64,000 nt of DNA, from NCBI GenBank assembly GCA_016186955.1, contig JACPKP010000004.1, positions 142,563-206,562 on the forward strand, read 5' to 3'. Position 1 is the first letter of the stretch, and every line of letters begins with the position of its first letter. This document shows positions 27,026-43,673 of the stretch, one piece after another. Below the pieces are notes generated by a model. It made no database searches. It had not been told where the DNA came from and saw nothing but the letters and a program-made list of their open reading frames with translations. Source of the stretch: Candidatus Daviesbacteria bacterium. Its GTDB lineage: Bacteria > Patescibacteriota > Microgenomatia > Daviesbacterales > UBA10151. The translations under genes and the position numbers were made by a program.

Positions 27026-27444
27026 TTGTGGCTATTATATCTTTTGTAAACTAACATGCAAACACTGATCAATGTAAAGGCTGAAAAAGAAAGAAACGGT
27101 ATGGTAACAAATCCCAACCATTCAAAAAACTTCGTGGTGCAGGAGATACCAGCAGCACAAGGGGCGGCAGATTCAGGCAACACCTGGTAGTACAAAAGGT
27201 TATGGTACAAAGCGGTCAGCATTCCGGTAATACTTAGCGGCAAGGCGTACAAATATACTTTTTTATCCTTTGTTAAAATACCTACTGCTAAAATTACCAC
27301 CAAAGGATACATAAATATCCTTTGGTACCAGCATAAGACGCAGGGCGGGAAACGGACTATCTCACTGAAAAAAAGACTGCCAAAAGTTGCGGAAAGCGCC
27401 AGCGCCCATGCAAAATATAAAGTATATTTTTTCAAAATGCCCAT
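27022..27444 (-). CDS. DsbB/BdbC-like disulfide bond formation protein
   Basis: Four TM helices. 'CVLCWYQR' is the first Cys pair and 'CAAGISC' the second periplasmic Cys pair. Confidence 0.6.
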   Translation of the reverse strand: MGILKKYTLYFAWALALSATFGSLFFSEIVRFPPCVLCWYQRIFMYPLVVILAVGILTKDKKVYLYALPLSITGMLTALYHNLLYYQVLPESAAPCAAGISCTTKFFEWLGFVTIPFLSFSAFTLISVCMLVYKRYNSHK

Positions 27445-28312
27445 AATACCGAAATTTATTATATTGCATTTGGAGCAATTTTACTATAAATTTTTATCTG
27501 TAATGCAAAAAGGAGTAACTGTTTCGGCGGTTGTACCGGCATACAATGAAGAGAAGGCGGTCGGGAAAATAGTTGACACCCTACTAGCCTGCAGCCTGAA
27601 CCAGGTTGTTTGTATCAATGACGGGTCCACAGACCAAACAGAACAAATCCTTGAAAATTTTGGGCGGCAAATTACCCTGGTAAACCATGAAAGGAACTTG
27701 GGTAAAGGTTTTGCGCTGGCTTCAGGCATAAAAGCTGCCCAAGGTCATGTTGTCATGTTTGTTGACGCAGATTTGCAAAACCTTAAAAAGAAACATATTT
27801 CCCAGCTTTTAGACACTTTTTTAACTAAAAAGTATGAGGTGGTAATTGGGGTGCGGTCTTTTGAAAAAGCAAATTATTACCTCCCCCTAAAATTAAATAT
27901 TTCCGGGGAGAGGGTATATTGGAGAGACTCCCTTTTGCCTTATCTGACCCAGATGAGAAAGATGAACTTTGGAGGGGTAGAAGTTTTCCTGAATTCTTTA
28001 TTTAAAAAAAACCAGGTCAGGAGAATTATTCTTGAAGGGTTGTACAACCCCCCAAAACACCAAAAAAGGGGATTTGAAGCAGGAATAAAGGAGTATCTGC
28101 AGGAGGGGGTTGAAATCGCCCTGGAACTTTCTAAACTTGAGCGCGCCCCTTTAGAGGATTACCTCAGGATTAAAAAAATTATGAAATTAAGGAATATTAA
28201 AGATATCAGGTCCCAGATAAACAGCATCACCAATAAATATGTCAAATCATCGCTTAAACTATACTTTAAAAAATACATGGAGGGGATACAGAAGATACTG
28301 ACTAAGATTTGA
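27437..28312 (+). CDS. GT2-family glycosyltransferase (DPM/DPG-synthase-like)
   Basis: 'VSAVVPAYNEE', 'INDGSTDQT' and 'FVDADL' (DxD) are present. The true start is probably Met at ~27503. Confidence 0.7.
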   Translation: MPIIPKFIILHLEQFYYKFLSVMQKGVTVSAVVPAYNEEKAVGKIVDTLLACSLNQVVCINDGSTDQTEQILENFGRQITLVNHERNLGKGFALASGIKAAQGHVVMFVDADLQNLKKKHISQLLDTFLTKKYEVVIGVRSFEKANYYLPLKLNISGERVYWRDSLLPYLTQMRKMNFGGVEVFLNSLFKKNQVRRIILEGLYNPPKHQKRGFEAGIKEYLQEGVEIALELSKLERAPLEDYLRIKKIMKLRNIKDIRSQINSITNKYVKSSLKLYFKKYMEGIQKILTKI

Positions 28313-28492: not shown

Positions 28493-28527
28493 GGGCAGTC
28501 CGGTTTTCCGGGCTGCCCATTCTTTTT
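28493..28527 (+). terminator. Rho-independent terminator (hairpin gggcagtccgg/ccgggctgccc + TTCTTTTT) between convergent genes
   Basis: Read directly. A second GC hairpin, cccccttcgggggg, lies at 28422-28436. Confidence 0.4.
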
Positions 28528-28939
28528 ACCCTGACGCTTTCGACAGTCCTAAAAACTCCTTATAATCCCTGATATAATCATCGGGATCATAAAGATTGGA
28601 CGCCAAAACCAGTAGAATAGTTTTCTTTTTAAAGTCATGCATTTCATGCCAGACCATTTTGTCTAAAAACAGTCCATGCTCAGGTTTGTCCAAAAAAACT
28701 GTTGCGCGTTTTTTCCCGTCATCAACTATTATTTTAATATCCGAATTCAGGCAGAATAAAACCTGTTGGGTTTTTTTATGTGCATGGAACCCCCTCGGAA
28801 ATTTAGGGTCAGCATCAAATATTGAATAAATCCTGTTTATGGGGAAGGGGATATGGTCAGGGGTTTGGGCAAACACCAGGGAACCGTCGTCTGTAATTTT
28901 TGGCAGGTAGATAAACCGCACCAGTTCATTTTCTCTCAT
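28526..28939 (-). CDS. Cupin-fold sugar 3,4-ketoisomerase-like (FdtA/WxcM-like)
   Basis: 'YSIFDADPKFPRGFHAHKKTQQVLFCL...VWHEMHDF' fits the WxcM/FdtA cupin pattern. Confidence 0.45.
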   Translation of the reverse strand: MRENELVRFIYLPKITDDGSLVFAQTPDHIPFPINRIYSIFDADPKFPRGFHAHKKTQQVLFCLNSDIKIIVDDGKKRATVFLDKPEHGLFLDKMVWHEMHDFKKKTILLVLASNLYDPDDYIRDYKEFLGLSKASG

Positions 28940-29977: not shown

Positions 29978-30010
29978 AAGGCGGCCTCCGGGCCGCCTTT
30001 CCTATTCTAT
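29978..30010 (+). terminator. Hairpin aaggcggcc-tccg-ggccgcctt + T-rich tail (probably bidirectional)
   Basis: Read directly. It abuts the sortase stop on the opposite strand. Confidence 0.45.
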
Positions 30011-30592
30011 AAGTTCACCAAAGACCAAAAGCCTTTTTAGGCTGGTGCCGGGTGGAGTACAGGTCATCAGAGTAAGAATTTTTTCATCTGTGTTGCTTTT
30101 TAGGTACTGCACATCATTAGGATTAACTATTTTTTTGCCATTGACAACATATTCATATTTTTCCCCTTTAAAGTAGATAAAAACTTTATCCCCATAATTT
30201 AACTTATCCAGTAGATAAAATATTGAGTTGTACCTTTGTGCTTCATAAAAATTTACTGAGGAGTGTGAGAATAAAAACATATTTCCTGGTTGGCCGGGAT
30301 AGGCTGTACCTTTAGCATGGGCTATGCCCTTTGCCAGCACCTGTTGGTATTCCCACTCCTTCCATGGGTCAACATTGGCGATTATGCGTGAATTAGCCCC
30401 TATTTTGGGCACCACAATGCCAAATTGCCGGTCTATAGGTTTAACCTCCTTCTTAGACTGTTTAACTAAGGCGCTTGTTTGGTAACCAAGCTCAGCTAAA
30501 AGCATGGGGTAAAAGGTAAGCCCGACAATAGAAAATGAGAAAAAAATCAGAATAATACCTAATGATGTTAAAAACCCGGGATATTTAAACAC
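30002..30592 (-). CDS. Sortase (class A/E-like transpeptidase)
   Basis: N-terminal TM. Catalytic 'LTLMTCTPPGT' (TLxTC) with upstream His. Length 196 aa. Confidence 0.8.
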   Translation of the reverse strand: MFKYPGFLTSLGIILIFFSFSIVGLTFYPMLLAELGYQTSALVKQSKKEVKPIDRQFGIVVPKIGANSRIIANVDPWKEWEYQQVLAKGIAHAKGTAYPGQPGNMFLFSHSSVNFYEAQRYNSIFYLLDKLNYGDKVFIYFKGEKYEYVVNGKKIVNPNDVQYLKSNTDEKILTLMTCTPPGTSLKRLLVFGELIE

Positions 30593-30596
30593 AATT

Positions 30597-31163
30597 TTAG
30601 ATGCGTTTTTTTGACCTTAACCCTTTGAAAAGTATTACCAAACCGGAAACCAGTGAAGCCAAAGCAATAATCAACCAAATAGATTCTGCACCTGTTTTTG
30701 GCAGGCTGATTGATGCCCCCAAAATCTCTCCTCCAGTACCTCCGCCACTGCAGCTGTAATTGCTGTTTTTGGCCAGATATGGAGCATTTTGCAGCCCCCA
30801 AAGACTTCCGTCAGGTATCAGAACCCAATTGTCTTTTTTTAAAACTTCAATTTGACCCTGGGTTAAGGATGAAGCTTTCCACCAGTTTGTCTGAATACCT
30901 GCTCCGTCTATAGAACAAAAACATTGCTGCAGTGTATTGTCTGAAAGTGTATAGACCTTGTCAGACCCTTTAAATTCAGTGCTATTTCCCGCTATACCAT
31001 GGGTTCCGCCGGGGTAGTCTGCTTTTATTGTTCCCTCCGGATTTGAACATGAAGGGAAATGAGGGGTATCAACAGCTTTTACCTGCATTGGGGTAGCGGT
31101 AAATAAAATTAATGAAACTGATAGTGATACCAAAAGTAACTTTGATAAATTCAAATTTATCAT
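30597..31163 (-). CDS. LPxTG cell-wall-anchored surface protein (sortase substrate)
   Basis: Signal peptide. C-terminal 'LPKTG' + hydrophobic helix + 'RSKKRI' tail. Gly/Ser-rich linker. Confidence 0.8.
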   Translation of the reverse strand: MINLNLSKLLLVSLSVSLILFTATPMQVKAVDTPHFPSCSNPEGTIKADYPGGTHGIAGNSTEFKGSDKVYTLSDNTLQQCFCSIDGAGIQTNWWKASSLTQGQIEVLKKDNWVLIPDGSLWGLQNAPYLAKNSNYSCSGGGTGGEILGASISLPKTGAESIWLIIALASLVSGLVILFKGLRSKKRI

Positions 31164-31205: not shown

Positions 31206-32192
31206 TTAAATGAATTTTCTGAAAGTGTAAAAGGATGTAATTGTTTTAACAGCTTTTCTGGGGTTTCCATTTTTATTCCAAAGCTGGGTTGAACCACCTA
31301 CACTAACCCAATAGTTTATTCCGATAACATTAGGATTGTTTTTAAGATTTTCGAGAACGCTTGAAATCCAATCTGATTGTTGTTCTTCATTCATCCGGCC
31401 GTTAATATCAGGTATTGGTACACCAAACTCACCCAAAACTACTTTTCCTCCGCTTGCCACTGCAATTTTATTGATATCGGAAATCAGTTTTTCCGGTTTG
31501 CCAACATAATGGTCGATCACTACAATTCCGCCCAATGATTTAGTTGTATCTTTATCCATAACTAAAGTTGCTACATCATAATTCATGGAATAAAAACCGC
31601 TGTTTAAATCCTTACCGATTTTTTTAAATGATTTTTGGGAGATTTGATATTCATCAATCAAAAATTTTCTATAATCCTCAACACCACCTGTTTGTCTGGG
31701 ATCACCCGAACCGCCATTTTCGCACTCAGGACAGGGAGTAAAAATATCGCCGTTTTCGAAAAAGTAAGGATTTTTTAATATAAAATCTTCTGTTTTTTTT
31801 AGATGGGTATTTCTGTCAATTTTATCATAGCCAAACCATTTTTCCCAACCGGAAAAATTCCCTCTGAACCAAACTTTGAGTTTATATTTTCTGGCAGCCT
31901 GAACCCACCTTTTTAGCATAGGGTTGAATTCATCGTCATACGGGGTTGAGATGGCGATATGGCTGGCGCCGGTTTTAGCAATATCTCCAACCTGGGTATT
32001 AATAGTCAGGTCAAAGCTCTCATCAGCTAACTTCTCCCGGCTTAAATCCCTGGAGTATTTAACAGTATCTATTGAGCGAAACTGCCAGTAGGGAACTGCA
32101 GCGGTTTTCGGTCCTGTCCCCGGAGCAATCGCCTTATAAAAGAAAAGCAGTCCTACCAGTATCATTAATATTCCCAGCAAAGTTTTATTCAT
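31206..32192 (-). CDS. Secreted TIM-barrel glycoside-hydrolase-like protein (GH5/GH113-like)
   Basis: Signal/TM. 'CPECENGG' (candidate acid/base NE/EN), 'LGEFGVP' (candidate nucleophile) and 'INYW' are present. Confidence 0.35.
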   Translation of the reverse strand: MNKTLLGILMILVGLLFFYKAIAPGTGPKTAAVPYWQFRSIDTVKYSRDLSREKLADESFDLTINTQVGDIAKTGASHIAISTPYDDEFNPMLKRWVQAARKYKLKVWFRGNFSGWEKWFGYDKIDRNTHLKKTEDFILKNPYFFENGDIFTPCPECENGGSGDPRQTGGVEDYRKFLIDEYQISQKSFKKIGKDLNSGFYSMNYDVATLVMDKDTTKSLGGIVVIDHYVGKPEKLISDINKIAVASGGKVVLGEFGVPIPDINGRMNEEQQSDWISSVLENLKNNPNVIGINYWVSVGGSTQLWNKNGNPRKAVKTITSFYTFRKFI

Positions 32193-33817
32193 TATTTTTG
32201 TTTTCCCAAAATTGGCCTGGTAATAAGATTGCTTACATATTGTTCCTGCAGCTTGTATACGTCCGCAAACGGATACTTAGCTACAAGATCATAATGATCA
32301 AGCTCCTTGGTTTTGCTGACTGCTTTATAAACCATATCTTTGTCATCGTAGGTACGCATCACAATCCATCTGGCCCAATGGGAAGGATTTGTAGTGGCAA
32401 GATCCCAATAAGCGCCCGTTCCTTCATGAATAAACTTGCTCATAGGTAATCCTGAGGAAAAGACGATCGCGTCATGAGATGCAACAGATATCAAAACGAA
32501 CCCATCTTTATCTTTGGCATTTTGGTTCAACCATCCGCTAACCTCGGAAACATTTTTTTGGCTTGATCCGACTCTGGCATCATCTATGGTCACCGCATCC
32601 AAACTGTTAAATTGAAAAAATGTTACAAATAATAAAAGACCGATCAATACAAGCCTTAAGTCTTTTAATCTGTCAATTAAAAATCCTACGAATATTGCAG
32701 CAGGCACAACCATCAGCGCTCCGTAACGCACATTAAACCAGGTTTCCCCTGAAATTCCCTGAATAAATAAAACAGAATGGCCAAAATACAGGGCAGCAAT
32801 ATTAAAAATTAGTGGAGTAGTTAACATTGAAGCTGCAATCTTTACGTTTAAGGCAATTTTTTTATCGATCCATAAAATTACCGCGCCAATCAAACCCAAA
32901 ACAGCAATAAAAGCGCCTACGTTATATACTAATGCATACAAATAGGCGCTTGCAGAATAAAGGATGTTTCCTTTGGTAACCAGATTTCCTGCCTGTTCCA
33001 ACTGAGCTTGCTGAACGCGCGCAGAGTAAGGACCATACGCAAAATATAGCGCATCTTTAAAAATCAGTTGGTTCCATAAAAACCATAGGAGTATCCCAAA
33101 CCCCGCCAGGGTTGCAAACAATATCATCAATCCTTCCGCTTTCTGGTATTTTTCTTTTAGGTTTTGGGTAATTTTACCTTGACTCTTTATAAAAATATTT
33201 ACCATAACCGCCGAGGCGATCAATAAAAATAGAAACCATCCGTCATAACGGGTAAGACTTGCCATCATCACCCAAAAAGCGGATTTGATTAAATCAATAA
33301 TTTTTTCCTCTTTTTCCCAAACGATAAAGCTGTAAATTGCCGCAGTGGTTGTGGCGATCAAAAGAGGTTCTGTCATTGCAGTAGACTGGAGATAAAGCAT
33401 GTTTAGGTTGGATGCAAACAGCCCTACTGCCACTAGCCTTCCCAATATCCCAATACCCAGTTTTTTTAAAATAAGATAGATAAAAATTCCTGTTGCCACA
33501 AAAGAAACCATTGAAGTTAAAGCTCCGGCTAAACCTGAGTGCCATAAAAAATCATTCCAGACAAAGGGGATCATTAAAACATGGGGGAGGGGAAGCCAGA
33601 CACTTCCAAGCTGAGCGATACCGGGCTTTAACCCTTCAACCACCCTCCTGCCAATATCCAAATGAGAACGCGCATCATTGTACGAAAGCCCCAAGCCGTT
33701 AATATAAAAATATGTAAAACTAACCAAGGCTATTAATGATAGAAGGATAGGTAAACCCAACATGGGGTCTTTAAAAATTATTCTAATTACATTCAGTTTA
33801 ATAATTGTATTTTTCAT
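32192..33817 (-). CDS. GT-C fold membrane glycosyltransferase (PMT/ArnT-like, GT39/GT83-like)
   Basis: More than 10 TM helices. The first loop has 'DARSHLDIGRR' (DE-like motif). Confidence 0.45.
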   Translation of the reverse strand: MKNTIIKLNVIRIIFKDPMLGLPILLSLIALVSFTYFYINGLGLSYNDARSHLDIGRRVVEGLKPGIAQLGSVWLPLPHVLMIPFVWNDFLWHSGLAGALTSMVSFVATGIFIYLILKKLGIGILGRLVAVGLFASNLNMLYLQSTAMTEPLLIATTTAAIYSFIVWEKEEKIIDLIKSAFWVMMASLTRYDGWFLFLLIASAVMVNIFIKSQGKITQNLKEKYQKAEGLMILFATLAGFGILLWFLWNQLIFKDALYFAYGPYSARVQQAQLEQAGNLVTKGNILYSASAYLYALVYNVGAFIAVLGLIGAVILWIDKKIALNVKIAASMLTTPLIFNIAALYFGHSVLFIQGISGETWFNVRYGALMVVPAAIFVGFLIDRLKDLRLVLIGLLLFVTFFQFNSLDAVTIDDARVGSSQKNVSEVSGWLNQNAKDKDGFVLISVASHDAIVFSSGLPMSKFIHEGTGAYWDLATTNPSHWARWIVMRTYDDKDMVYKAVSKTKELDHYDLVAKYPFADVYKLQEQYVSNLITRPILGKQK

Positions 33818-33824
33818 AATAATT

Positions 33825-35345
33825 TTATTGCCTGTTTTTAGAAATTGAAAAGACTATCAGAGAGGCTATAACAAAACAACTTGAGACGCCTGTGACGATG
33901 GCAAGAAATACCGTACTAGTTATTTTATCGAATAGGTATACATTATATATAAGCGAACCGGAGAAATTTTTTTGGATTAATTCAAGATTGTATCTGAAAT
34001 CTGAATGAATTGGGGTGAGTAAGTGGACTGCTTGAATAGCCGGCGGGATATGTACGGTTGTAACAGCGCTCAAGGTATTAACAAAAATTCCATATAGTGC
34101 AACCAAGCATAATAAAATCAAAAAAAATATATTTTTTTTAAGTCTATCCAATAGAATACCCAACCCAGAACAAAGCAAGGCAAATGATGGAATCAAATAT
34201 CTTGGTCCAAAAGCCCAACCGCCCCAAGGATCGTTAAACATAGAATACAATAAAACGTTTATCCCTATCATAGTTAGCATCAAAGACGCTAAACTACTGT
34301 CTTTTTTGCTCCGAATTATCCAAAACAAGCTTATAAAACCGATTAATACAACCGGACTATAATAAATTAGCCCACGGTCTCTGCTAAAAAGTAAAACGCC
34401 TAATCCATTGAGTTGTCTGCGTGATTCGAATTGATGAAAATCCTTAGACCTTGTGACTGTTTCATTTTCAATTTTGTGGGATTGGCTTAGTTGAGGATCC
34501 TCAGGAAAGATTGCTCTACCCTGAGTCTGTGCAAGTTTAAAATAGTTACCGGTTACCTGATAATTATACCAAAGAAATAACCCTGTAATGGGTACTAGAC
34601 CTATAAATATACCAAGCATACTTATACGCTTGAGTGACTGCTTTAATTGAAAAAATACCTCACTTTTTTCTATAAAAATATTTTTGTAAATTACAACAAT
34701 TAATATTGGGATAGACAGTATAATATTAGGAATATCAACTATCGCAGCAGCGCTCAATAAAAACCCAAAAATTATATTACTTAAAATCCCCCTTTTTTGT
34801 AATGTGTTAAGCAGCATTAAAATAATCAGAGTGACGCTAACCTGATGCTGTGTAAAAGTAACCGCATACGGGTATGCATTTGTAGCAAATAAAAATAAAA
34901 ACCCACTGAGTATGCTGGAATAAAAACCCGCCCCTAATTTTGAAGCTAATTTTGCAACCAGAAAGATATTCAAAAGAGATAATAATGTTATAGAAAGGTA
35001 AGTTGTTAATTGCTGGAGATTGAATATAGAGCCTAAATAATAAAAAGGCACTCCGATCAACGAAACACCGGGTGTAAAAATTGATAGATATTTACCATTA
35101 ATCTTGGAAATATCAGGCGATGAAAAAGCAGCCAAAGATTCATTAAGAAATAAACTATTGGATTTGACAATCGACTCAGTTAGGGCAAACCTCGAGGAAC
35201 TATTTGTACCTTCAAAAGGGCTGCCTATACCGGTATCCCTGTTTGTTTGAAAGTAAATTGGGATACCCGAACGTCCCCTGACCGCAAAACCTAATAAAAA
35301 TAAACTTATTATTAAGGTGGTTACCAGAAAAAAAGCATTTTTCAT
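33825..35345 (-). CDS. GT-C fold membrane glycosyltransferase (PMT/ArnT-like), second copy
   Basis: Multi-TM with the same architecture. It lies adjacent to 32192-33817. Confidence 0.45.
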   Translation of the reverse strand: MKNAFFLVTTLIISLFLLGFAVRGRSGIPIYFQTNRDTGIGSPFEGTNSSSRFALTESIVKSNSLFLNESLAAFSSPDISKINGKYLSIFTPGVSLIGVPFYYLGSIFNLQQLTTYLSITLLSLLNIFLVAKLASKLGAGFYSSILSGFLFLFATNAYPYAVTFTQHQVSVTLIILMLLNTLQKRGILSNIIFGFLLSAAAIVDIPNIILSIPILIVVIYKNIFIEKSEVFFQLKQSLKRISMLGIFIGLVPITGLFLWYNYQVTGNYFKLAQTQGRAIFPEDPQLSQSHKIENETVTRSKDFHQFESRRQLNGLGVLLFSRDRGLIYYSPVVLIGFISLFWIIRSKKDSSLASLMLTMIGINVLLYSMFNDPWGGWAFGPRYLIPSFALLCSGLGILLDRLKKNIFFLILLCLVALYGIFVNTLSAVTTVHIPPAIQAVHLLTPIHSDFRYNLELIQKNFSGSLIYNVYLFDKITSTVFLAIVTGVSSCFVIASLIVFSISKNRQ

Positions 35346-35348
35346 ATT

Positions 35349-36581
35349 TTAAATTTGCGGTTGGTTCATTCCAAAAAAAGCATCTTTTAACTTATCCATT
35401 GATTTTTTGAATTCGAAATTAGATATATATAATTCTCTATTGTTTACGCCAAATCTCTCTCTAATGCTTCGGTTTAGAATCAGGGTCGCTATTTTTTTAG
35501 CCAGTTGGGCAGGATTTCCAGAAGCAACTACAAATCCGCCGAAATGATATTTTTCAAGCTCTCGGCTTGTATTATTTTCAGCTATTACCATCGGCAGACC
35601 GGATGCCATCGCCTCAAAATACATAGCCGGCATAGTTTCTGAAATTGAGCCAGACACAAAGATATCTGCTTTATTATAAAATTTATTAATCAGCTCCCTT
35701 TTAATATATCCTTTAAAAACAACATATTTATTTAGTTTCAATCTGGTTGTTAAATTTAATAAATGCTCTTTTTGCGGACCATCTCCCACTATTACCAGTA
35801 TTAAATTTGTAATTTTCATTTTATGCACAAGAATATTTAAAGCAAAAATCAGATCTTCTGTTCTTTTTCTTTCAACTAAATAACTTACATTAAGCAGGAC
35901 AATATCTTTTGTTGTTTTTCTTGCCCTTTTTTTGTATGAAACCACCTGTGTAGCGTTATTTCCAACAGGTAAAATCATTGTATTATAAAGACCTTTATTT
36001 TTTAGTATTAATTTGCTTGCTTCATCCTTGGCTATAACTAAAGCTGCTTTTTTTAATGTTAGGTTAGATATGTAAATAAAAGCTTTAGATAAAAAATATG
36101 TTTTACTGTCAAAAAATTTAAGCAACGCAAGGGTCTTACTTGAACTTACATTTATTTTCTTACCCATAGATCTGGTTTCATCCTCTCCCAAAAAAGTATG
36201 CGGAGTTACAATTGGACCGATAACAAAAGGTATTTTTTTTGAAAATACTAACCCCGCAAGGTTGAATGTTTCGTTTAATGCAAACGGACCGTTATGCCAC
36301 ATAATGTCATACCTGTTCTGCTTAATTAATATCATTGATTTCAGAAAAACCCAGAAAATAAATTTCAAGCGTGTTAAATTAGATATATATTCAGGTTTTT
36401 TTTGAAAAAAACTAATGATACTTAGACGCCCCATTTTCTTTTTCTCACAAAACCCAACTAAAACATCCCCGTAAATATCCTCTTGTTTACTTAAATACTC
36501 AAGATAATCAAATGCCCTTGAATATTCACTGCCGTCATTTTTATCCGCTATATAGTGCAACGGCGCTATCAATAAATTCAT
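35349..36581 (-). CDS. GT4-family glycosyltransferase
   Basis: 'ETMPAMYFEAMASGLPMVIAENNTSRE' is the GT4 C-terminal block. Confidence 0.65.
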   Translation of the reverse strand: MNLLIAPLHYIADKNDGSEYSRAFDYLEYLSKQEDIYGDVLVGFCEKKKMGRLSIISFFQKKPEYISNLTRLKFIFWVFLKSMILIKQNRYDIMWHNGPFALNETFNLAGLVFSKKIPFVIGPIVTPHTFLGEDETRSMGKKINVSSSKTLALLKFFDSKTYFLSKAFIYISNLTLKKAALVIAKDEASKLILKNKGLYNTMILPVGNNATQVVSYKKRARKTTKDIVLLNVSYLVERKRTEDLIFALNILVHKMKITNLILVIVGDGPQKEHLLNLTTRLKLNKYVVFKGYIKRELINKFYNKADIFVSGSISETMPAMYFEAMASGLPMVIAENNTSRELEKYHFGGFVVASGNPAQLAKKIATLILNRSIRERFGVNNRELYISNFEFKKSMDKLKDAFFGMNQPQI

Positions 36582-36600
36582 ATAAATACCTTTCTTGATG

Positions 36601-37551
36601 TTAATGAACCTTTTTTTGTATTAAAAAGTCTAAATAATCGTTTTGCTTCCCTTTATCGTAATAATGAGATAAATTTAGAGAGATATATAAAGCTAGTGGC
36701 TGATTAAACTCTTTCGTTATTTTTTGAATCCGGCTATAAACATCCCGGGAATCGGTTTTAATCAATTTTTGCGTAAAATCATAATCTTTAAGAGTTAGCA
36801 CCATATATTCACAATCTATAATTGTAGCAGAGCTTTTACTAACCAGAATATTTTCGGCAGATAAATCCCTATGCGCTAAATATAAGGATTTTTGGTTTGA
36901 TAAAACAAAACCCTTGAGTATTAAAAGCGCTGATTTAATTATTGTCCAGGAATATTTCGGGTTAGATATAACGCCAAGAAATATTAAAAAAGGCAAGGAG
37001 AGAACCATAAAAGATAAACTTCTGGTTGGAAAACCATTCAGTTGTAATGGTTTTGAAACCTTTTCAAAGGCTTCAAGTATCCCTTTAATATAAGTTACCT
37101 GAAAGGGGATAGAGAAGCATTTTAACTGTTTTCCCGGGATATATTTGAAAACAACTGATAATAACCTCTTCTCTTCAATTATTTCTAAAACCTCAGTAAC
37201 TTCAAGTTTTTTACCACAAATTTTAATTGCAGTTTTGGAAAATTCTTTAGACAGCAATTTACTGGAAATAATTTCATTGAGTAAAGAATAATAATGAAAA
37301 TCCCTAAAGTGGCCCTGCCAGGTTTTTATAAATTTTTTATTACCTTGATTGTCCGAGTAAATGCCTACATAAAAATTACTGAAGCCATTTGATTTTTTTA
37401 TTGTTCTTATCAGTCTATACTTACCGATATTCGTCAGTTCAAGGTTATACTTATTAAATAACTTATTGATACCAAAAAAAGAAATTATCATACCCACCAG
37501 TAAGTTTAGGGTTGATGCTTTTTTGTAATCAGTTATGCTCTTACTTTTCAT
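36601..37551 (-). CDS. Protein-kinase-like fold protein (Kdo/WaaP / eukaryotic-like kinase), N-terminal TM
   Basis: Catalytic loop 'HRDLSAENILV' followed by 'IIDCEY' (DFG-like region). Confidence 0.5.
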   Translation of the reverse strand: MKSKSITDYKKASTLNLLVGMIISFFGINKLFNKYNLELTNIGKYRLIRTIKKSNGFSNFYVGIYSDNQGNKKFIKTWQGHFRDFHYYSLLNEIISSKLLSKEFSKTAIKICGKKLEVTEVLEIIEEKRLLSVVFKYIPGKQLKCFSIPFQVTYIKGILEAFEKVSKPLQLNGFPTRSLSFMVLSLPFLIFLGVISNPKYSWTIIKSALLILKGFVLSNQKSLYLAHRDLSAENILVSKSSATIIDCEYMVLTLKDYDFTQKLIKTDSRDVYSRIQKITKEFNQPLALYISLNLSHYYDKGKQNDYLDFLIQKKVH

Positions 37552-37553
37552 AT

Positions 37554-40500
37554 TTATTCTTTTAAAAGTTTTATTAACCTATCGCTACTTTGATCCCAAC
37601 TGAATTGTTTTACCCAATCTCTTGAATTAGTTTCCAAATAAATTCTGAATTTTTTATCTTTCAAGATCCTACAAATTGCCTCTATCCATTTTTCCTGATT
37701 GTCCCAAGCCACCAATAAACCTGTATGAGGGTTTTTAACCGAATCACGAAGTCCGGGTACATCGGAAGCAATTACACAGGTACCTGCAGCATTAGCTTCT
37801 ATGATAGTGATACCCCAGCCTTCAATCCTTGAAGGTTGAACCAGAATCCATGATTTAGCTAAAAGTTCGACTTTAGTCTTTTCACTAACAACACCAATAA
37901 ACTTAATAACCTTTTGTAGATTTAAGTTTTGTACTAATTTTTCAAGGGATGACCTGCTTTCTCCCTCTCCTGCAATAGTTAATGTAACTGACGGAACTTG
38001 TTTTTTGACCTCTCCCATGACATTTATAAGTTTGTCCAATGATTTGTAAGGCTTTAGTCTGCCAAGATATAAAAGCGAGGGTGTATAGGTCTTGTTAGTA
38101 TTTAACTGGAACTTTTTCAGATCTACTCCGGGGTTGATAATAGATATCTCTTGTTTTTTACCCAATCCTAAGCTTTTAATTGCCTGTTTTGAAGACTGCG
38201 AAACCGTTATCACCTTTGAATTTCTGTAAGCTAGGGGCATCAGTTTTCCTTCCAAAAATCTTCCAATTTGTGATAGGGGGAATTTAAGCTCAGTCAAAAA
38301 TACTTCCTGATGAATGTGGTGAATCAGCAGAAATATTTTCTCTCTGGCATAAAGCGGAGTAAAAAAAGGAATTCCGTTCTCAGAATCAATTACAACATCA
38401 AAAGAATCTTTAAATCTGAAAATATAATACAAAAAAGCCCAAATATATACTGTATATGTTCCGCCTCTTCTGATAATCTGTATTCCATCTATATATTCAG
38501 CTCTCGGTAAGTTACCGTCGTTTCCGCAAAAGAGCGTTACCTGATTTCCTTGCTCCACCCATTTTTTTGCCATTTCATGCAAATAAACCTCTGCTCCTCC
38601 AGCCCATTTATGTTTTGTATCCCTCCAATTCATGATTAAAATTGATTTGTTAGATTGAAATCTATTTTTTGGTTTTGTTCTAAAAAATAACAGCCCTAAT
38701 AGGTCTTTTAGATTAGATTTAATAGGATTGTATTTTTTATGAAGGACATGCAGAAGAAAAACACAAAGAAAATTGAAAAAACCTATATAAAATACCTGGT
38801 AAGTAAAATCTTTGACACTACTATGAAATTTATTTATCAGAACCAATTCAGCTGCAAATGAAAATACTCCGCTTAAAGTAAAAATATACTTTTCTTTAGC
38901 TTGGTAAAAATGGATTATTGGACGGCTGAGGGTAAAGAATGTTATACCCAGCAAAAAAACAGGTAAATATTCTAAAATGTGTTCAGTTTTTTTACCTAAA
39001 AGTAATGGAACAAAAAGATTACCGAAAATTCCTAATAATAAAAAAGTTGTCAAGGAAACAAGGGCTGTGGAGCCAAAAATCAGCCAAAAGGTTTTGTTAC
39101 TTTTTTTTGTGGCGCCTTCATTTCTGGAAACTATAGGGATCATGAAAGGCAAAAAAAGAGCGCCCATATAATATGCAATTTTCCCAACAAGGCTTAACAA
39201 GCTATATTGACCAGCCTCAAACGGGGACAAAAAATGCTTAGCTAGAATGATATCTAAGCCCAAAAAAGATATGTTTGAAATCCCATTTAAAGCCGAAGTT
39301 GTAAAGAAAAGAAAATTAAATGAGAATTGTTTAGAGGGTAATGCGCTAGATTTAGTTTTTAATACTAAAATCCAACCTAAGATAACTTCAATTAGTAATG
39401 CAGCTGGTATTGCCAGCGCTACATAATCTGCTAAGCCTGCTTTTATCAATAAAAAAGCTAGCGTAAGTTTTACAAAAGATTCAACGATTGTTAATAATCC
39501 AATTGTCCCAAAAGATAATATTCCCTTCAGGTATCCTGCAACACTCAAGTTTAATATTCCAATTGTCCAAATCGGGGTAAAGATTAAAAAAGTTAACAAT
39601 GAGTCTGTGTGAAAATAGGATGATAGAAACGGTATAGATAACAACCATAAAAGAGTCGCTAAAGAAGCAACTAAAATTCCGTAGTGGGCAACTACATTTA
39701 AATATTTCCTGGCATTTTCTTTAGAATACCTGCCAATAATAAACGCCACTTTATGGGATACGGTTGTTGAGAAAGCATTAAGGGGTATGTATGCTATAAA
39801 CAGAAGGCTTGTAAATAAACTCAATTCCCCAAAATCCTCAACACTAAGTTTCCTTCCCAAAAATGCATTGAATATAAAGTTTGAAATGTTTGCCAAAAGG
39901 TTTGCTAAGATCAGCATTGACCCTCCGACAAAAAGATCTTTCTCAGCTATCACTCCAGGCAATTTATTTGTAAGCCATCCTTTCCATGTTGCTTTACTTC
40001 CGGAAACTGACACTTCTTCGGCTACCTCATTTTTCATTACTTCACTGATATATTTTTTAGCTTCTGTTTTTTTAAAATCCAGTCCATGCACTGTTTTTTC
40101 CCAATAGTGAGGCTTAAAAATCAACTGGAAAAGCGCCATAACTGCAGCTATCGAGGTAATCAGCCAGTAAAAGGGGATTAGGTAAACAAATTTAATGATT
40201 GTAAAATGGCCTCTTTTGGCTGCACCTATCATATAGTTATAAAAGTGCAGGAAGTTTCCAAACACTAAGGAGAACGCTGCCATATAAAAAACAGGCGCAG
40301 GGTAGAATGATTCAATAGCCGGACCAACGATTGAATAAAGCGCAAAGTAAGAGATGGTTGTTATCCAAAGTATTGGGTTAATTAAAATAAATGAAATTCT
40401 TGAGCCGATTATTAAATCAAAAATTAATGCGTGCGCTCTGTGTTTTTTTAGGAAATCCCATCTGTCCCTGGTGTGAACTAAGTAGGTTTGCATATAACCC

Positions 40501-41186
40501 TTGATCCACCTTGATCTTTGCCTGATCCAGTTACCCAAATCGCTATTTGCTTCCTCAAGCGTTGTTGAATCAATAATCGCTGTTTTATAGCCCTGCCTGA
40601 AAAGTCTTACTCCCAAATCGCAATCCTCGGTAACGTTAAATGGATCCCATCCCTCAAGCGATCTTAGTATTTCCGTTTTGAAATGATTACTGGTTCCACC
40701 CAATGGTATGGTTGTATCAATGGATTGAAACCCTATAAGTATTACGTCAAACCAAAGCGAATACTCTGCCGTAAAAAGGCGGGTTAAAAGATTTTGATGA
40801 GGATTGTAGTAATTCAGTTTTGCCTGAAGGCATACAACGCTATTTTTGGATTTTTGAAAAGCCAAATAAGCTTTTTTCAGTTGACACGGATCCGGTTGAT
40901 CTTCGGCATCATAGATGACTAAGTATTCTCCTTTGACAAAATTTAAACCAAAATTACAGGCTTTTGGTTTTGTTTTAGGAAGGGAATCAGGAACAATAGT
41001 TGTTGTTATATACTCAGGTAAATTTAAGCTTCTGACTGCATCTATTGTTTCCTGATCATCACTCTCAAGAAGAAGCTGAATATCCAACTTTTCCTTAGGC
41101 CACTCAATTTTAGAAATAGATTCTAAAAATTTTGGTAAAACTCTTGCTTCCCTATACAAAGGCACAAGTATGGAATAAACCGGCAA
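37554..41186 (-). CDS. Tri-domain fusion: processive GT2 (QxxRW) - MOP/Wzx-type polysaccharide flippase - GT4
   Basis: Residues 1-~380: 'IYDAEDQPDP', 'QRSRWIKG' and GT2 TM helices. Residues ~400-820: 12-TM Polysacc_synt-like. Residues ~830-1210: GT4 'IEGWGITIIEANAAGTCVIASDVPGL'. It is a single 1210-aa ORF. Confidence 0.7.
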   Translation of the reverse strand: MPVYSILVPLYREARVLPKFLESISKIEWPKEKLDIQLLLESDDQETIDAVRSLNLPEYITTTIVPDSLPKTKPKACNFGLNFVKGEYLVIYDAEDQPDPCQLKKAYLAFQKSKNSVVCLQAKLNYYNPHQNLLTRLFTAEYSLWFDVILIGFQSIDTTIPLGGTSNHFKTEILRSLEGWDPFNVTEDCDLGVRLFRQGYKTAIIDSTTLEEANSDLGNWIRQRSRWIKGYMQTYLVHTRDRWDFLKKHRAHALIFDLIIGSRISFILINPILWITTISYFALYSIVGPAIESFYPAPVFYMAAFSLVFGNFLHFYNYMIGAAKRGHFTIIKFVYLIPFYWLITSIAAVMALFQLIFKPHYWEKTVHGLDFKKTEAKKYISEVMKNEVAEEVSVSGSKATWKGWLTNKLPGVIAEKDLFVGGSMLILANLLANISNFIFNAFLGRKLSVEDFGELSLFTSLLFIAYIPLNAFSTTVSHKVAFIIGRYSKENARKYLNVVAHYGILVASLATLLWLLSIPFLSSYFHTDSLLTFLIFTPIWTIGILNLSVAGYLKGILSFGTIGLLTIVESFVKLTLAFLLIKAGLADYVALAIPAALLIEVILGWILVLKTKSSALPSKQFSFNFLFFTTSALNGISNISFLGLDIILAKHFLSPFEAGQYSLLSLVGKIAYYMGALFLPFMIPIVSRNEGATKKSNKTFWLIFGSTALVSLTTFLLLGIFGNLFVPLLLGKKTEHILEYLPVFLLGITFFTLSRPIIHFYQAKEKYIFTLSGVFSFAAELVLINKFHSSVKDFTYQVFYIGFFNFLCVFLLHVLHKKYNPIKSNLKDLLGLLFFRTKPKNRFQSNKSILIMNWRDTKHKWAGGAEVYLHEMAKKWVEQGNQVTLFCGNDGNLPRAEYIDGIQIIRRGGTYTVYIWAFLYYIFRFKDSFDVVIDSENGIPFFTPLYAREKIFLLIHHIHQEVFLTELKFPLSQIGRFLEGKLMPLAYRNSKVITVSQSSKQAIKSLGLGKKQEISIINPGVDLKKFQLNTNKTYTPSLLYLGRLKPYKSLDKLINVMGEVKKQVPSVTLTIAGEGESRSSLEKLVQNLNLQKVIKFIGVVSEKTKVELLAKSWILVQPSRIEGWGITIIEANAAGTCVIASDVPGLRDSVKNPHTGLLVAWDNQEKWIEAICRILKDKKFRIYLETNSRDWVKQFSWDQSSDRLIKLLKE

Positions 41187-41232: not shown

Positions 41233-42243
41233 TCAGGAGGAGCGTAAAAACTTTTGGTAATTAAAAAAAAGACTGAATAAAACGTCTATAAAATAAACAA
41301 CGCTGAGGATTCCAATTAATACTTGCAGCGCCAGCAGCCAGTTTAAAGCAAAGCCTATGAGTAGAATTCCGATTAATAAAACAAAGAAAAGCGCCTGATT
41401 AGCGCTGAAGGTTTTAAATGCGGAAGATTTATGGTTTAAAGTGGTATGTGTTATATATCTTTTGCTCTTGTAAGCCAAACCGGCGCCAACCATAGTTGTG
41501 ACAGCTTGAGGAAGAATTTTATATATCTTTCTTTTGGAAAATTTATGCTTTAAAGAATTCGTACCGATCTCAACTATTGTTTTGAAAACATTAATGTTTG
41601 AGGCCCCGTTTAATCTTTTGTCAAATTTGATACCAATAGTTCCAATTGAATACCCGAGTTCCCTGGCGGTTAAAAGAAGGAGCAGATCCAATGTCCAGGG
41701 AGAAAGAGTATTTTGGTCAACATTTTCAATCACCTCTTTTTTAAAAAGCTTTAGGCCTGATTGAACATCACAATCCAACCCAAACAAGAAATTGCCAAAT
41801 ATATTCTTAAATCCTGCATTTAAGAATTTTCTAAAAGGCTTATCCTGATAATCAATCCTGTTGGCAACAACCACCCCATGCTCTGAAAGTTTTGCAAACA
41901 TTGCAGGTATGACTTCTGGAGGATACTGCAAATCACCGTCGATCATAGCAAGGTTGTCACCTACTGCAAATTGGGCGCCCTCGATGATTGAATATGCTTT
42001 CCCGGCCTTACCTTTTTTTGTAACAAGTTTAACCGGATAAAACCGCTGAAGGTTTAATATAGTTTCAGTTGTTTGATCTTCAGACCGGTCATCTACAAAA
42101 ATAATTGTGTAATCTATACCTTTTGAAGACATGGAGGAATCAATCCTTTTTACCAAAGGCGTTATATTTTCTTCCTCGTTTTTGACAGGAATGATAATAT
42201 TTAAGTAATTCATAACTGTATTAAAAAGGCATGATCCTAGCAA
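41233..42243 (-). CDS. GT2 polyprenol-phosphate sugar synthase (DPM1/GtrB-like) with C-terminal TM helices
   Basis: 'IIIPVKNEEENI', 'FVDDRSEDQT' and 'IDGDLQYPPE' are present. Two C-terminal hydrophobic helices follow. Confidence 0.7.
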   Translation of the reverse strand: MLGSCLFNTVMNYLNIIIPVKNEEENITPLVKRIDSSMSSKGIDYTIIFVDDRSEDQTTETILNLQRFYPVKLVTKKGKAGKAYSIIEGAQFAVGDNLAMIDGDLQYPPEVIPAMFAKLSEHGVVVANRIDYQDKPFRKFLNAGFKNIFGNFLFGLDCDVQSGLKLFKKEVIENVDQNTLSPWTLDLLLLLTARELGYSIGTIGIKFDKRLNGASNINVFKTIVEIGTNSLKHKFSKRKIYKILPQAVTTMVGAGLAYKSKRYITHTTLNHKSSAFKTFSANQALFFVLLIGILLIGFALNWLLALQVLIGILSVVYFIDVLFSLFFNYQKFLRSS

Positions 42244-42956: not shown

Positions 42957-43673
42957 ATGGATTTTGAGGTTCAGGGAAAAACTATTCTTTTTGTATGCGC
43001 ACATCCCGATGATCTGGAGTTTTGTTTCGGGGGAACTGTTGCAAAATGGGCGGGCGAGGGTGCATCAATTTATTATCTTATATTAACTGACGGAAGCAAA
43101 GGCTGCGAAGATCCACAACTGGATCCAACTGAACTAATAAAAACCAGACAGAGAGAACAGGATGAGGCAGCCAAAATTCTAGGTGTTAAAAAGGTGATAT
43201 TTTTAGACCATGTCGACGGCGAACTTGAAAATAACCCAAAACTTAGAAAACAGATAGTCAGGGTCATCCGCAAGATAAAACCGGATATAGTTGTAACAAT
43301 GGATCCTACATTTGTCTATGACGAGAAATATGGCATCATCAACCATCCTGACCACCGGGTCGCCGGCCAGACCACCTTGGACTCTGTCTACCCTTTTGCC
43401 AGAAACCACCGTGCTTTTCCGGAGCTTTTGGATGAAGGGTTAACACCCCACCATGTCAGTGATATCCTTCTTTTCAACAGCCTAAGGATGAATTTTTTTG
43501 TAGATATAGAAGATACTCTTGCAAAAAAGCTTAAAGCGCTAAACTGTCATAAAAGCCAGTTTAAAGATCCACAAGCGGTTGAAAAGCTGGTAATACTTGT
43601 TGCCCAAAACGCGGGTAAGAAAGCAAAGCTCAAATATGCAGAAGGCTTAACCTGGGTCCATATTAATTTTTAG
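42957..43673 (+). CDS. PIG-L/LmbE-family N-acetylglucosaminyl deacetylase (BshB/MshB-like)
   Basis: 'LFVCAHPDDLEFCFGG' and 'HPDHR' zinc-binding signatures are present. Confidence 0.75.
   Translation: MDFEVQGKTILFVCAHPDDLEFCFGGTVAKWAGEGASIYYLILTDGSKGCEDPQLDPTELIKTRQREQDEAAKILGVKKVIFLDHVDGELENNPKLRKQIVRVIRKIKPDIVVTMDPTFVYDEKYGIINHPDHRVAGQTTLDSVYPFARNHRAFPELLDEGLTPHHVSDILLFNSLRMNFFVDIEDTLAKKLKALNCHKSQFKDPQAVEKLVILVAQNAGKKAKLKYAEGLTWVHINF

Follow-up and report, generated by a model that had tools for sequence, protein, structure and literature searches.

A putative glycosyltransferase-flippase fusion gene, linked to GT-C-fold proteins and split by a frameshift in Candidatus Daviesbacteria

What is encoded by an open reading frame (ORF) that appears to join sugar-transferring enzymes to a flippase-like membrane domain, and is it a complete gene? 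The question is raised by ORF B, which occupies positions 37554..41186 in a 64,000-nucleotide stretch of a Candidatus Daviesbacteria genome (assembly GCA_016186955.1, contig JACPKP010000004.1, positions 142,563 to 206,562 of the forward strand). This whole stretch is called the window here; coordinates are those of the window, and features lie on its reverse strand unless marked (+). The initial annotation described ORF B as a single polypeptide that combines a processive family 2 glycosyltransferase (GT2, with QxxRW), a flippase of the Wzx/MOP type, and a family 4 glycosyltransferase (GT4), and took it for a self-contained make-and-export machine. The evidence presented here indicates that a +1-nt frameshift has divided a gene of four modules, of which ORF B is the larger portion, and that its length of 1210 amino acids (aa) is a lineage-specific truncation of a longer ancestral gene. 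The ancestral protein, together with two linked membrane proteins, may constitute a fused glycosylation system.

ORF B comprises 1210 codons counted from a TTG and holds modules 2-4 of the longer gene. The continuity claimed for it is borne out, both in its coordinates and in the complete lack of stops across the frame. A 3.6-kb ORF in DNA of ~34% GC, with three significant domain matches, lies far beyond chance expectation. In the ORF listing the TTG is the first possible start; it is merely the earliest start codon past a stop. NCBI and Logan both place the start at a GTG seven codons further on (41165), which yields a product of 1203 aa (MBI2595752.1).

The first domain of ORF B is module 2, a catalytic GT2 domain designated GT2b (40437..41186; ORF B aa 1-250) and delimited by Pfam and by alignment with BcsA. 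Two Pfam families match above cutoff, Glyco_tranf_2_3 at aa 4-230 (1.4e-22) and Glyco_trans_2_3 at aa 89-285 (4.3e-23), and the motifs DD (aa 43-44), DAED (aa 93-96), TED (aa 186-188), and QRSRW (aa 223-227) are all in place. Both TED and QRSRW are found in 120/120 of the best 120 homologs. By its D/DxD/TED/QxxRW signature and its Pfam matches, GT2b can be assigned at the sequence level to the cellulose-synthase-like GT2 clade; the initial term 'processive' was derived from QxxRW alone, a motif also present in non-processive members of that clade. The hydrophobic block that follows (40101..40436; aa 251-362), defined by hydropathy, ends in a conserved KPHYWEKT motif and probably consists of four transmembrane (TM) or interface helices, as judged from a crude hydropathy scan. 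A poorly conserved, predicted cytoplasmic linker (39936-40100; aa 363-417) separates this block from the MOP domain.

Module 3 (38685..39935; aa ~418-834) is a Wzx/PST-like domain of the MOP superfamily. Pfam recognizes it only as MatE, at aa 425-557 and marginally (27.3 bits against a cutoff of 24.9), with Polysacc_synt unmatched, and a direct search of its sequence against the PDB gave no useful match. Because PDB sequence searches gave nothing useful for this domain or for a 541-aa protein of the same locus, discussed below, fold comparison was needed for both. The AlphaFold2 (AF2) model of the MOP domain, built from an alignment of 54 homologs, has a pLDDT of 87.9 and a pTM of 0.85 and contains twelve long helices followed by a C-terminal amphipathic helix. 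In a Foldseek search of the PDB, this model retrieved only MOP-superfamily transporters, with E. coli MurJ (9ukv) and WzxE (9g95) at the top and MATE exporters next (probability 1.00, TMq 0.63-0.71 over ~450 columns, in each case >440). A conserved LGR arginine, R445, follows TM1. Standalone relatives of the domain are 410-470 aa long, and one of them, P0121, hits Polysacc_synt (PF01943) with 36 bits against a cutoff of 28.2; precomputed PF01943 matches also exist for several full-length homologs. Thus, in the predicted model, a 12-TM MOP fold made of two 6-TM bundles is established for module 3. A MurJ identity was considered and set aside: the domain has 12 rather than 14 TM helices, and its relatives match Polysacc_synt or MatE and no MurJ family. 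The fusion to glycosyltransferases (GTs) and the linkage to GT-C proteins suggest that the domain flips lipid-linked sugars.

Module 4 (37557..38624; aa 855-1210) was identified by Pfam as a GT4 enzyme, i.e., a member of a retaining-type family with the GT-B fold. Glyco_transf_4 (1.7e-15) and Glycos_transf_1 (1.8e-39) together cover aa 863-1191; a GGAEVY motif lies in the N-terminal part, and the EX7E motif, here EGWGITIIE (aa 1122-1130), is conserved among homologs. The combination of N-domain, C-domain, and EX7E supports the assignment to GT4 at the sequence level. Among the NCBIfam models it comes closest to Agl16, EpsE, MshA, and BshA, with scores far under the family cutoff in every case. 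The covalent union of GT2, MOP, and GT4 that had been proposed therefore holds, with Pfam speaking for the two GT portions through the four families named and AF2 with Foldseek for the MOP portion, to which Pfam contributes only the weak MatE match.

A search with the 1210-aa ORF returned >5000 proteins at E<=1e-3, many of them perhaps through a single GT domain, and the best 120 were examined. More than 100 homologs, at 50-61% identity, share the domain order of ORF B exactly, which argues that the fusion is not an assembly chimera. The frame of ORF B also runs on upstream of its first start codon, as ...FFLITKSFYAPPEISVKDDEIFALEDSK, and this extension corresponds to a conserved linker in homologs that are ~340 residues longer.

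The missing ~340 residues lie immediately upstream, in ORF A (41233..42213; 326 aa from an ATG; NCBI MBI2595753.1). This is module 1, designated GT2a. It comprises a GT-A domain (~aa 1-235) with the DxD motif in the form DGD (aa 92-94), and two TM helices by hydropathy (~aa 267-319). Pfam matches it to Glycos_transf_2 (1.9e-23); NCBIfam matches include PgfS, ArnC, AglJ, and a Dol-P-hexose transferase, the first three below their equivalog cutoffs. Its best PDB relatives are P. furiosus DPMS (1.5e-21), ArnC (6.9e-15), and the GtrB protein sll0501 (5e-13). The DxD motif, the two C-terminal TM helices, and the similarity to characterised members all mark GT2a, on sequence criteria, as a polyprenyl-phosphate GT of the DPMS/GtrB/ArnC type.

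The two frames are parted by a T8 homopolymer (41263-41270), where ORF A terminates as ...YFIDVLFSLFFNYQKFLRSS* at a TGA created by the +1-nt frameshift, just past the T run. Removal of one T merges ORF A and ORF B into a single frame of 1552 codons, i.e., a T7 tract would give one 1552-aa ORF. The corrected junction, YFIDVLFSLFLITKSFYAPPEI, aligns without gaps with homologs such as P0008 (YFIDALFSLFLITKSLHSCPEL), and T7, as the ancestral tract, encodes LFL. A sequencing or assembly error was rejected as the cause. Logan contigs that were assembled separately for three runs (SRR12113424, SRR12113422, and SRR12113430) all have the same T8, one of the contigs differing by two substitutions elsewhere, and NCBI likewise annotates two separate coding sequences (MBI2595753.1, 326 aa, and MBI2595752.1, 1203 aa). 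Because T8 is common to the assemblies of three runs, the split is real and extends throughout this Candidatus Daviesbacteria population. It falls exactly past TM2, leaving a complete GtrB-like protein upstream and, downstream, an ORF that opens at the GT2b domain. As the only frameshift, it lies upstream of all three domains of ORF B and thus does not separate them into individual genes, the outcome that would have undone the original proposal of a fusion.

The four-module form is the prevailing one among the best 120 homologs. Ninety-eight of them (1533-1922 aa) contain the complete set of modules, and their alignments with the frame-corrected protein start at its residue 1-4; 21 (1285-1440 aa) start past the GT2a catalytic domain while keeping its two TM helices; and one, P0053 (1219 aa), begins where ORF B does. 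P0053 was considered as a natural two-gene variant and rejected. In its assembly (GCA_964441115.1) the break is a scaffold gap of 10 Ns with a copy of one and the same 16-mer on either side (L039:4380-4470), and the gene upstream is a GT2a homolog with 48% identity, i.e., an intact gene has been split by assembly. Over the 98 full-length homologs, mean identity to the window protein is 72% for GT2b, 64% for the TM block after it, 56% for GT4, 45% for GT2a, 37% for MOP, and 19% for the linker before MOP; the catalytic motifs of all modules (QRSRW, TED, DAED, EX7E, and DxD) are conserved. The four-module gene is common in Microgenomates-type Patescibacteria, which are ultra-small 'candidate phyla' bacteria. 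Homologs that carry a taxon name belong to Curtiss-, Levy-, Beckwith-, Gottesman-, Ames-, Woese-, Roizman-, Dojka-, and Doudnabacteria or to 'Microgenomates'. Databases hold thousands of family members, labelled 'glycosyltransferase' only or not at all. Many metagenome-assembled genomes that contain the cluster are titled 'uncultured Gammaproteobacteria', 'Bdellovibrionales', or 'Pseudomonadales' (L004, L012, L013, L016-L021, L026-L029, L031); these titles look like misassignments because they are at odds with the patescibacterial gene content.

How, then, is ORF B expressed in the present genome? Three possibilities are to be considered: translation from an internal start, +1 ribosomal or transcriptional slippage on the U8 tract, and recent conversion to a pseudogene. 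A -1 ribosomal frameshift on the U run was rejected, as the -1 frame hits a UAA at once; by our reading of the sequence, only a +1 or -2 shift, or the loss of one U from the mRNA, restores the frame. No Shine-Dalgarno-like sequence was found upstream of the TTG or the GTG, and the start of ORF B is therefore not confirmed as a natural gene start on sequence grounds. A U8 tract is able to support transcriptional or +1 slippage, and the T8 tract could accordingly be the basis of either process or of on/off switching. The frameshift shows that the modules are separable at linkers, or else that expression depends on slippage.

The pseudogene explanation stands independently of the mechanisms weighed below. 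It holds that the locus was inactivated recently in this lineage, that the frameshift abolishes translation of ORF B, and that too little time has passed for further lesions to accumulate. The presence of the frameshift in three runs agrees with it, as do the start codons that lack a Shine-Dalgarno-like sequence and the fact that two-gene forms are otherwise unseen in the best 120 homologs, the only other split being the scaffold-gap artefact in P0053. Old decay, by comparison, is argued against by the intactness of the 3.6-kb frame and of every catalytic motif. The same intactness, without a further stop, also speaks against recent inactivation, and so does the position of the break, which spares both a GtrB-like protein and an ORF starting at GT2b. 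Slippage on U8 could restore the full protein, and the window holds no second copy of the gene, as determined by comparing hidden Markov models of the modules with its six-frame translation. On balance, we regard inactivation as somewhat unlikely.

Further evidence on function comes from the relatives of the MOP domain. An exhaustive HMMER search over 1.84 billion cluster representatives found 2565 relatives, and architectures were determined for 150 representatives. MOP alone accounts for 66/150, MOP-GT4 for 38, MOP-GT2 for 12, the four-module form for 9, and GT2b-MOP-GT4 for 5, with the remainder showing other architectures, including MOP-GT4-GT2 and MOP-GT4-acetyltransferase. The repeated fusion of this subfamily to GTs argues for a functional coupling of GT and flippase. 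As far as these sequences indicate, the four-module protein is the most elaborate form of a recurring GT-flippase fusion in the subfamily.

Two conserved partners are encoded downstream, both of them polytopic and without a Pfam family. The first is a membrane protein of 506 aa (33825..35345), the second a membrane protein of 541 aa (32192..33817; HYW46_03375, 100% identical and annotated 'hypothetical protein'). An AF2 model of the 541-aa protein, based on 33 homologs, has a pLDDT of 75.9 and a pTM of 0.68, with a soluble C-terminal part of only ~100 aa. The top 24 Foldseek matches in the PDB are all GT-C enzymes, among them STT3, ALG12, PglB, ArnT, ALG9, Pmt4, AftA, AftD, and EmbB, and a sub-threshold Pfam match to PMT (0.0037) points the same way. 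At the level of the model, the 541-aa protein can thus be considered a GT-C-fold membrane glycosyltransferase. Searches of the PDB by sequence were uninformative for the 541-aa protein and for a 14-sequence profile of its family, and for the 506-aa protein they returned chance antibody matches only. The 506-aa protein is a distant paralog (hhalign of the two families, 93.8% probability, E 1.8e-7), and its NCBIfam match is to the LA_3751/LA_3752 putative glycosyltransferase (2.5e-14). It is probably a GT-C-fold glycosyltransferase as well.

The linkage of this pair to the four-module gene is strict. Thirty-four homologous loci were surveyed by tblastn, and counts were taken from the 21 whose sequence extends 8 kb past the MOP domain on its downstream side. 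One or both GT-C paralogs are present in 21/21 of these loci; 15/21 have both, encoded on the same strand with the 506-aa type ahead of the 541-aa type. Each type by itself is found in 18/21 loci, and the 541-aa protein reaches up to 61% identity. Two loci (L011:10794-13863 and L027:7924-10907) carry two tandem 541-aa GT-C paralogs with the 506-aa type undetected; these tandem pairs indicate that the two families may partly replace each other. In a further locus (L026:7508-9061), the 506-type homolog has an in-frame stop, which could reflect loss of gene function, an error in sequencing, or recoding of the codon.

The genes located between ORF B and the GT-C pair (35349..37551) vary across homologous loci. 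In the window they are a kinase-fold protein of 316 aa (36601-37551) and a GT4 of 410 aa (35349-36581). The former has weak matches only (Choline_kinase, 4.5e-4; CotS, ThiK; of the APH type) and abuts ORF B without overlap, 2 nt separating the stop from the start; in L001 and L003, similar positions are taken by larger APH-like kinases. Elsewhere the intervening genes encode GT2s, GT4s, S-adenosylmethionine-dependent methyltransferases, NodB-type deacetylases, an acetyltransferase, APH-like kinases, the sugar-modifying enzymes FdtA/DegT, and UDP-glucose dehydrogenase.

The layout of the ancestral protein (GT2a, 2 TM, GT2b, ~4 TM, MOP, GT4) allows GT2a, GT2b, and GT4 all to be cytoplasmic, because two TM helices precede GT2b, an even-numbered block follows it, and the MOP domain has 12. 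Synthase, flippase, and GT-C classes are all present, and for this reason we favour, with a confidence slightly better than even, the general scheme of a fused multi-component transmembrane glycosylation system made up of the four-module protein and the GT-C pair. The substrates, order of steps, flipped intermediate, and product given here are those we infer. GT2a would charge polyprenyl phosphate with a sugar at the cytoplasmic face. GT4 and GT2b, with neighbouring GTs, deacetylase, methyltransferases, and kinase, would attach further sugars to an intermediate that is lipid-linked or a nascent polymer. The MOP domain would flip the lipid-linked sugar or sugars to the outer face, where the two GT-C-fold enzymes would transfer them to an acceptor on the cell surface, perhaps a glycolipid, lipoglycan, wall polymer, or protein. 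The earlier idea of a self-contained machine does not survive in this form: the ancestral gene has a fourth module, and the locus is linked to GT-C transferases and further GTs.

Several points weigh against the fused system. The scheme is drawn from genes and predicted folds, in a family of which no member has been characterised. The gene is frameshifted in this genome and may be inactive. GT2a is not obligatory in cis, because 21 of the best 120 homologs lack its catalytic domain. Pfam support for MOP in the window protein is marginal, and a MOP fold by itself does not tell lipid-sugar flippases apart from MATE-type exporters. The GT-C model of the 541-aa protein is of moderate confidence (pLDDT as given above; TM-scores 0.4-0.5). 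Finally, GT2b and its TM block, the most conserved parts of the protein, could act as an autonomous, self-exporting polymer synthase, in which case MOP would serve the product of GT2a only.

The last point can be developed into a full alternative. In this case, GT2b and its flanking TM helices would form a processive synthase of the BcsA, PgaC, or hyaluronan synthase type that passes a beta-glycan through its own channel; GT4 would possibly prime the chain on a lipid, and GT2a, MOP, and the GT-C proteins would be a separate branch that adds side-chain sugars outside the cell. Indeed, the best solved relative of GT2b is E. coli BcsA (5.5e-12), in an alignment that covers all catalytic motifs of the synthase, and the PgaC_IcaA model of NCBIfam spans ORF B aa 2-359, TM block included. 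The high conservation of these parts is also in line with such a synthase, as are the deacetylases that accompany the gene, of the NodB type or, in the window, PIG-L, as in poly-N-acetylglucosamine (PNAG) or Nod-factor systems. However, GT2b scores far below the cutoffs of the CelA model (55 bits vs 699) and the PgaC model (50 bits vs 422), hydropathy gives only a rough count of the TM helices that could form a channel, and the commonest fusion of the MOP subfamily, MOP-GT4 without GT2b, is left unexplained. We therefore hold an autonomous synthase to be unlikely.

A more specific version of the fused system deserves mention alongside. The DPMS-like domain might hand its polyprenyl-phosphate sugar straight to the attached MOP domain, while GT4 and GT2b build a lipid-anchored glycan that the GT-C enzymes extend outside; we hold such direct coupling of synthase and flippase to be unlikely. 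If true, it would provide natural 'Rosetta stone' evidence for the flipping of polyprenyl-monophosphate sugars by MOP proteins. It would also define a compact lipoglycan pathway, with a logic like that of glycosylphosphatidylinositol (GPI) or lipomannan, as a core envelope feature of Microgenomates-type Patescibacteria.

The remaining alternative, also quite improbable, is the transfer of a finished block, in a Wzx-dependent or archaeal Agl-like manner. An oligosaccharide begun by GT2a on polyprenyl monophosphate would be lengthened by GT2b and GT4 with the help of GTs and methyltransferases encoded nearby, and MOP would flip the finished product; one GT-C would then be an oligosaccharyltransferase or ligase acting on a surface protein or polymer, and the other would add a final sugar from a lipid-P-monosaccharide. 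In NCBIfam, GT2a resembles AglJ and GT4 resembles Agl16, but the scores are far under the family cutoffs. STT3 and PglB are top structural matches of the 541-aa protein, but ArnT and ALG9/12 match its model about as well as STT3 does, and its small soluble part is closer to that of ArnT in size. The WWDxG-type motif is typical of STT3, PglB, and AglB; the listed invariant residues of the 541-aa family alignment do not include it. Methyltransferases, UDP-glucose dehydrogenase, and several GTs in homologous loci would suit a block mechanism, as would the LPXTG protein and sortase that the window, like some other loci, has a short way downstream. As for the classical Wzx/Wzy-dependent pathway, the locus content does not support it: the ORFs scanned on both sides of the gene (24.2 to 43.7 kb of the window) and the gene tables of four homologous loci contained no Pfam family of a phosphoglycosyl transferase, Wzy, or a chain-length regulator, any of which may lie elsewhere in the genome, and the absence of these three families from the loci scanned is why a route through lipid-monophosphate sugars fits better.

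Other neighbouring genes bear on the possible product. A PIG-L/LmbE family de-N-acetylase (42957-43673 (+), 2.4e-31) is divergently encoded upstream of the gene. Its conservation does not extend to the other loci, which have NodB-type deacetylases in its place; deacetylases of either type hint at a step converting N-acetylglucosamine to glucosamine. At 30002-31163, a sortase (PF04203, 2.5e-25) adjoins a secreted protein of 188 aa with an LPXTG-type C-terminal anchor (TIGR01167, 19.3 bits), ~1 kb beyond the GT-C pair. Homologs of these two lie near the gene in a few other loci (L003, L013, L018, L021), and glycosylation may be targeted to the 188-aa protein. The gene that immediately follows that of the 541-aa GT-C encodes a protein of 328 aa (31206-32192) with an N-terminal TM helix and a sub-threshold match (0.0084) to PF11790, 'glycosyl hydrolase catalytic core'; it recurs at the same position in L011, L021, and L031 with 43-61% identity. 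Finally, ~9 kb from the gene there is another GT2 (27437-28312 (+)), along with an FdtA/WxcM-like sugar isomerase (28526-28939, 6.6e-42). In L003, FdtA and a DegT aminotransferase also follow the four-module gene, which suggests that some members make a glycan containing a 3-amino-3,6-dideoxyhexose.

Full-text literature searches returned no description of a GT2-MOP-GT4 fusion, in agreement with the initial impression that the architecture had not been described; the lipocone paper mentions patescibacterial operons but not the four-module protein. Every single domain family is known. What is new is their covalent combination and the strict linkage to a GT-C pair. The way in which polyprenyl- and dolichyl-monophosphate sugars cross the membrane is poorly resolved, and candidate flippases (GtrA-type, GacK) have mostly genetic support. 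The fusion of a DPMS/GtrB-like synthase, two further GTs, and a Wzx-fold domain beside GT-C proteins ties these activities together purely through genome context. With all of them but the GT-C step in one polypeptide, it is also a target for biochemical and cryo-EM studies of the coupling between synthesis and flipping, relevant to the envelope of Patescibacteria. In a large group of bacteria that are uncultivated and depend on hosts, the family probably produces a major glycoconjugate of the cell surface.

Comparison with known systems places the protein between several of them. Like BcsA, PgaC/IcaA, hyaluronan synthase, and NodC, GT2b contains the motifs D, DxD, TED, and QxxRW, followed by a hydrophobic block on the C-terminal side. 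Unlike these synthases, it is fused to MOP and GT4 and scores far below the CelA and PgaC cutoffs, and neither a PilZ domain nor a BcsB/PgaD-type partner turned up in the searches run. The MOP domain shares with Wzx/PST proteins and MurJ the 12-TM MOP fold, with a TM-score of ~0.7 to E. coli MurJ and WzxE, and a conserved Arg after TM1. In contrast to them, it is flanked by three GT domains, and Wzy, a PCP-type chain-length regulator, and a phosphoglycosyl transferase are not seen nearby; we know of no characterised Wzx or MurJ protein that is fused to a glycosyltransferase.

The actinobacterial pathway to phosphatidylinositol mannosides (PIM), lipomannan (LM), and lipoarabinomannan (LAM) and the eukaryotic GPI pathway employ a GT4 (PimA or PIG-A), PIG-L, a DPMS-type polyprenyl-P-mannose synthase, an unknown flippase, and GT-C mannosyltransferases. 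The resemblance of the window locus to these pathways extends to components only, i.e., a GT4 that resembles MshA and BshA, a nearby PIG-L, the DPMS-like GT2a, and GT-C proteins that match ALG9/12, Pmt, and Aft/Emb. It differs in that PIG-L gives way to NodB-type enzymes in other loci and in that nothing points to an inositol-lipid acceptor.

The closest parallel is with multi-component transmembrane glycosylation. In such systems a GtrB/CsbB/GacI synthase (GT-A) makes a C55-P-sugar, a flippase of the GtrA type or the Wzx type (GacK) moves it, and a GT-C (GtrV/YfhO/GacL) uses it; the logic is that the donor is made inside by a DPMS/GtrB-type GT2, flipped, and used outside by a GT-C, with S. 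pyogenes GacI/GacK/GacL being the case with a Wzx-type flippase (PMC8035078). The window locus differs from this scheme in that synthase and flippase were ancestrally one polypeptide, which also contained a cellulose-synthase-like GT2 and a GT4, and in having two GT-C paralogs. The essential components nevertheless co-occur: a GtrB/DPMS-like GT2 with two TM helices, a Wzx-fold domain, and linked GT-C-fold partners are found together, as expected of a multi-component system.

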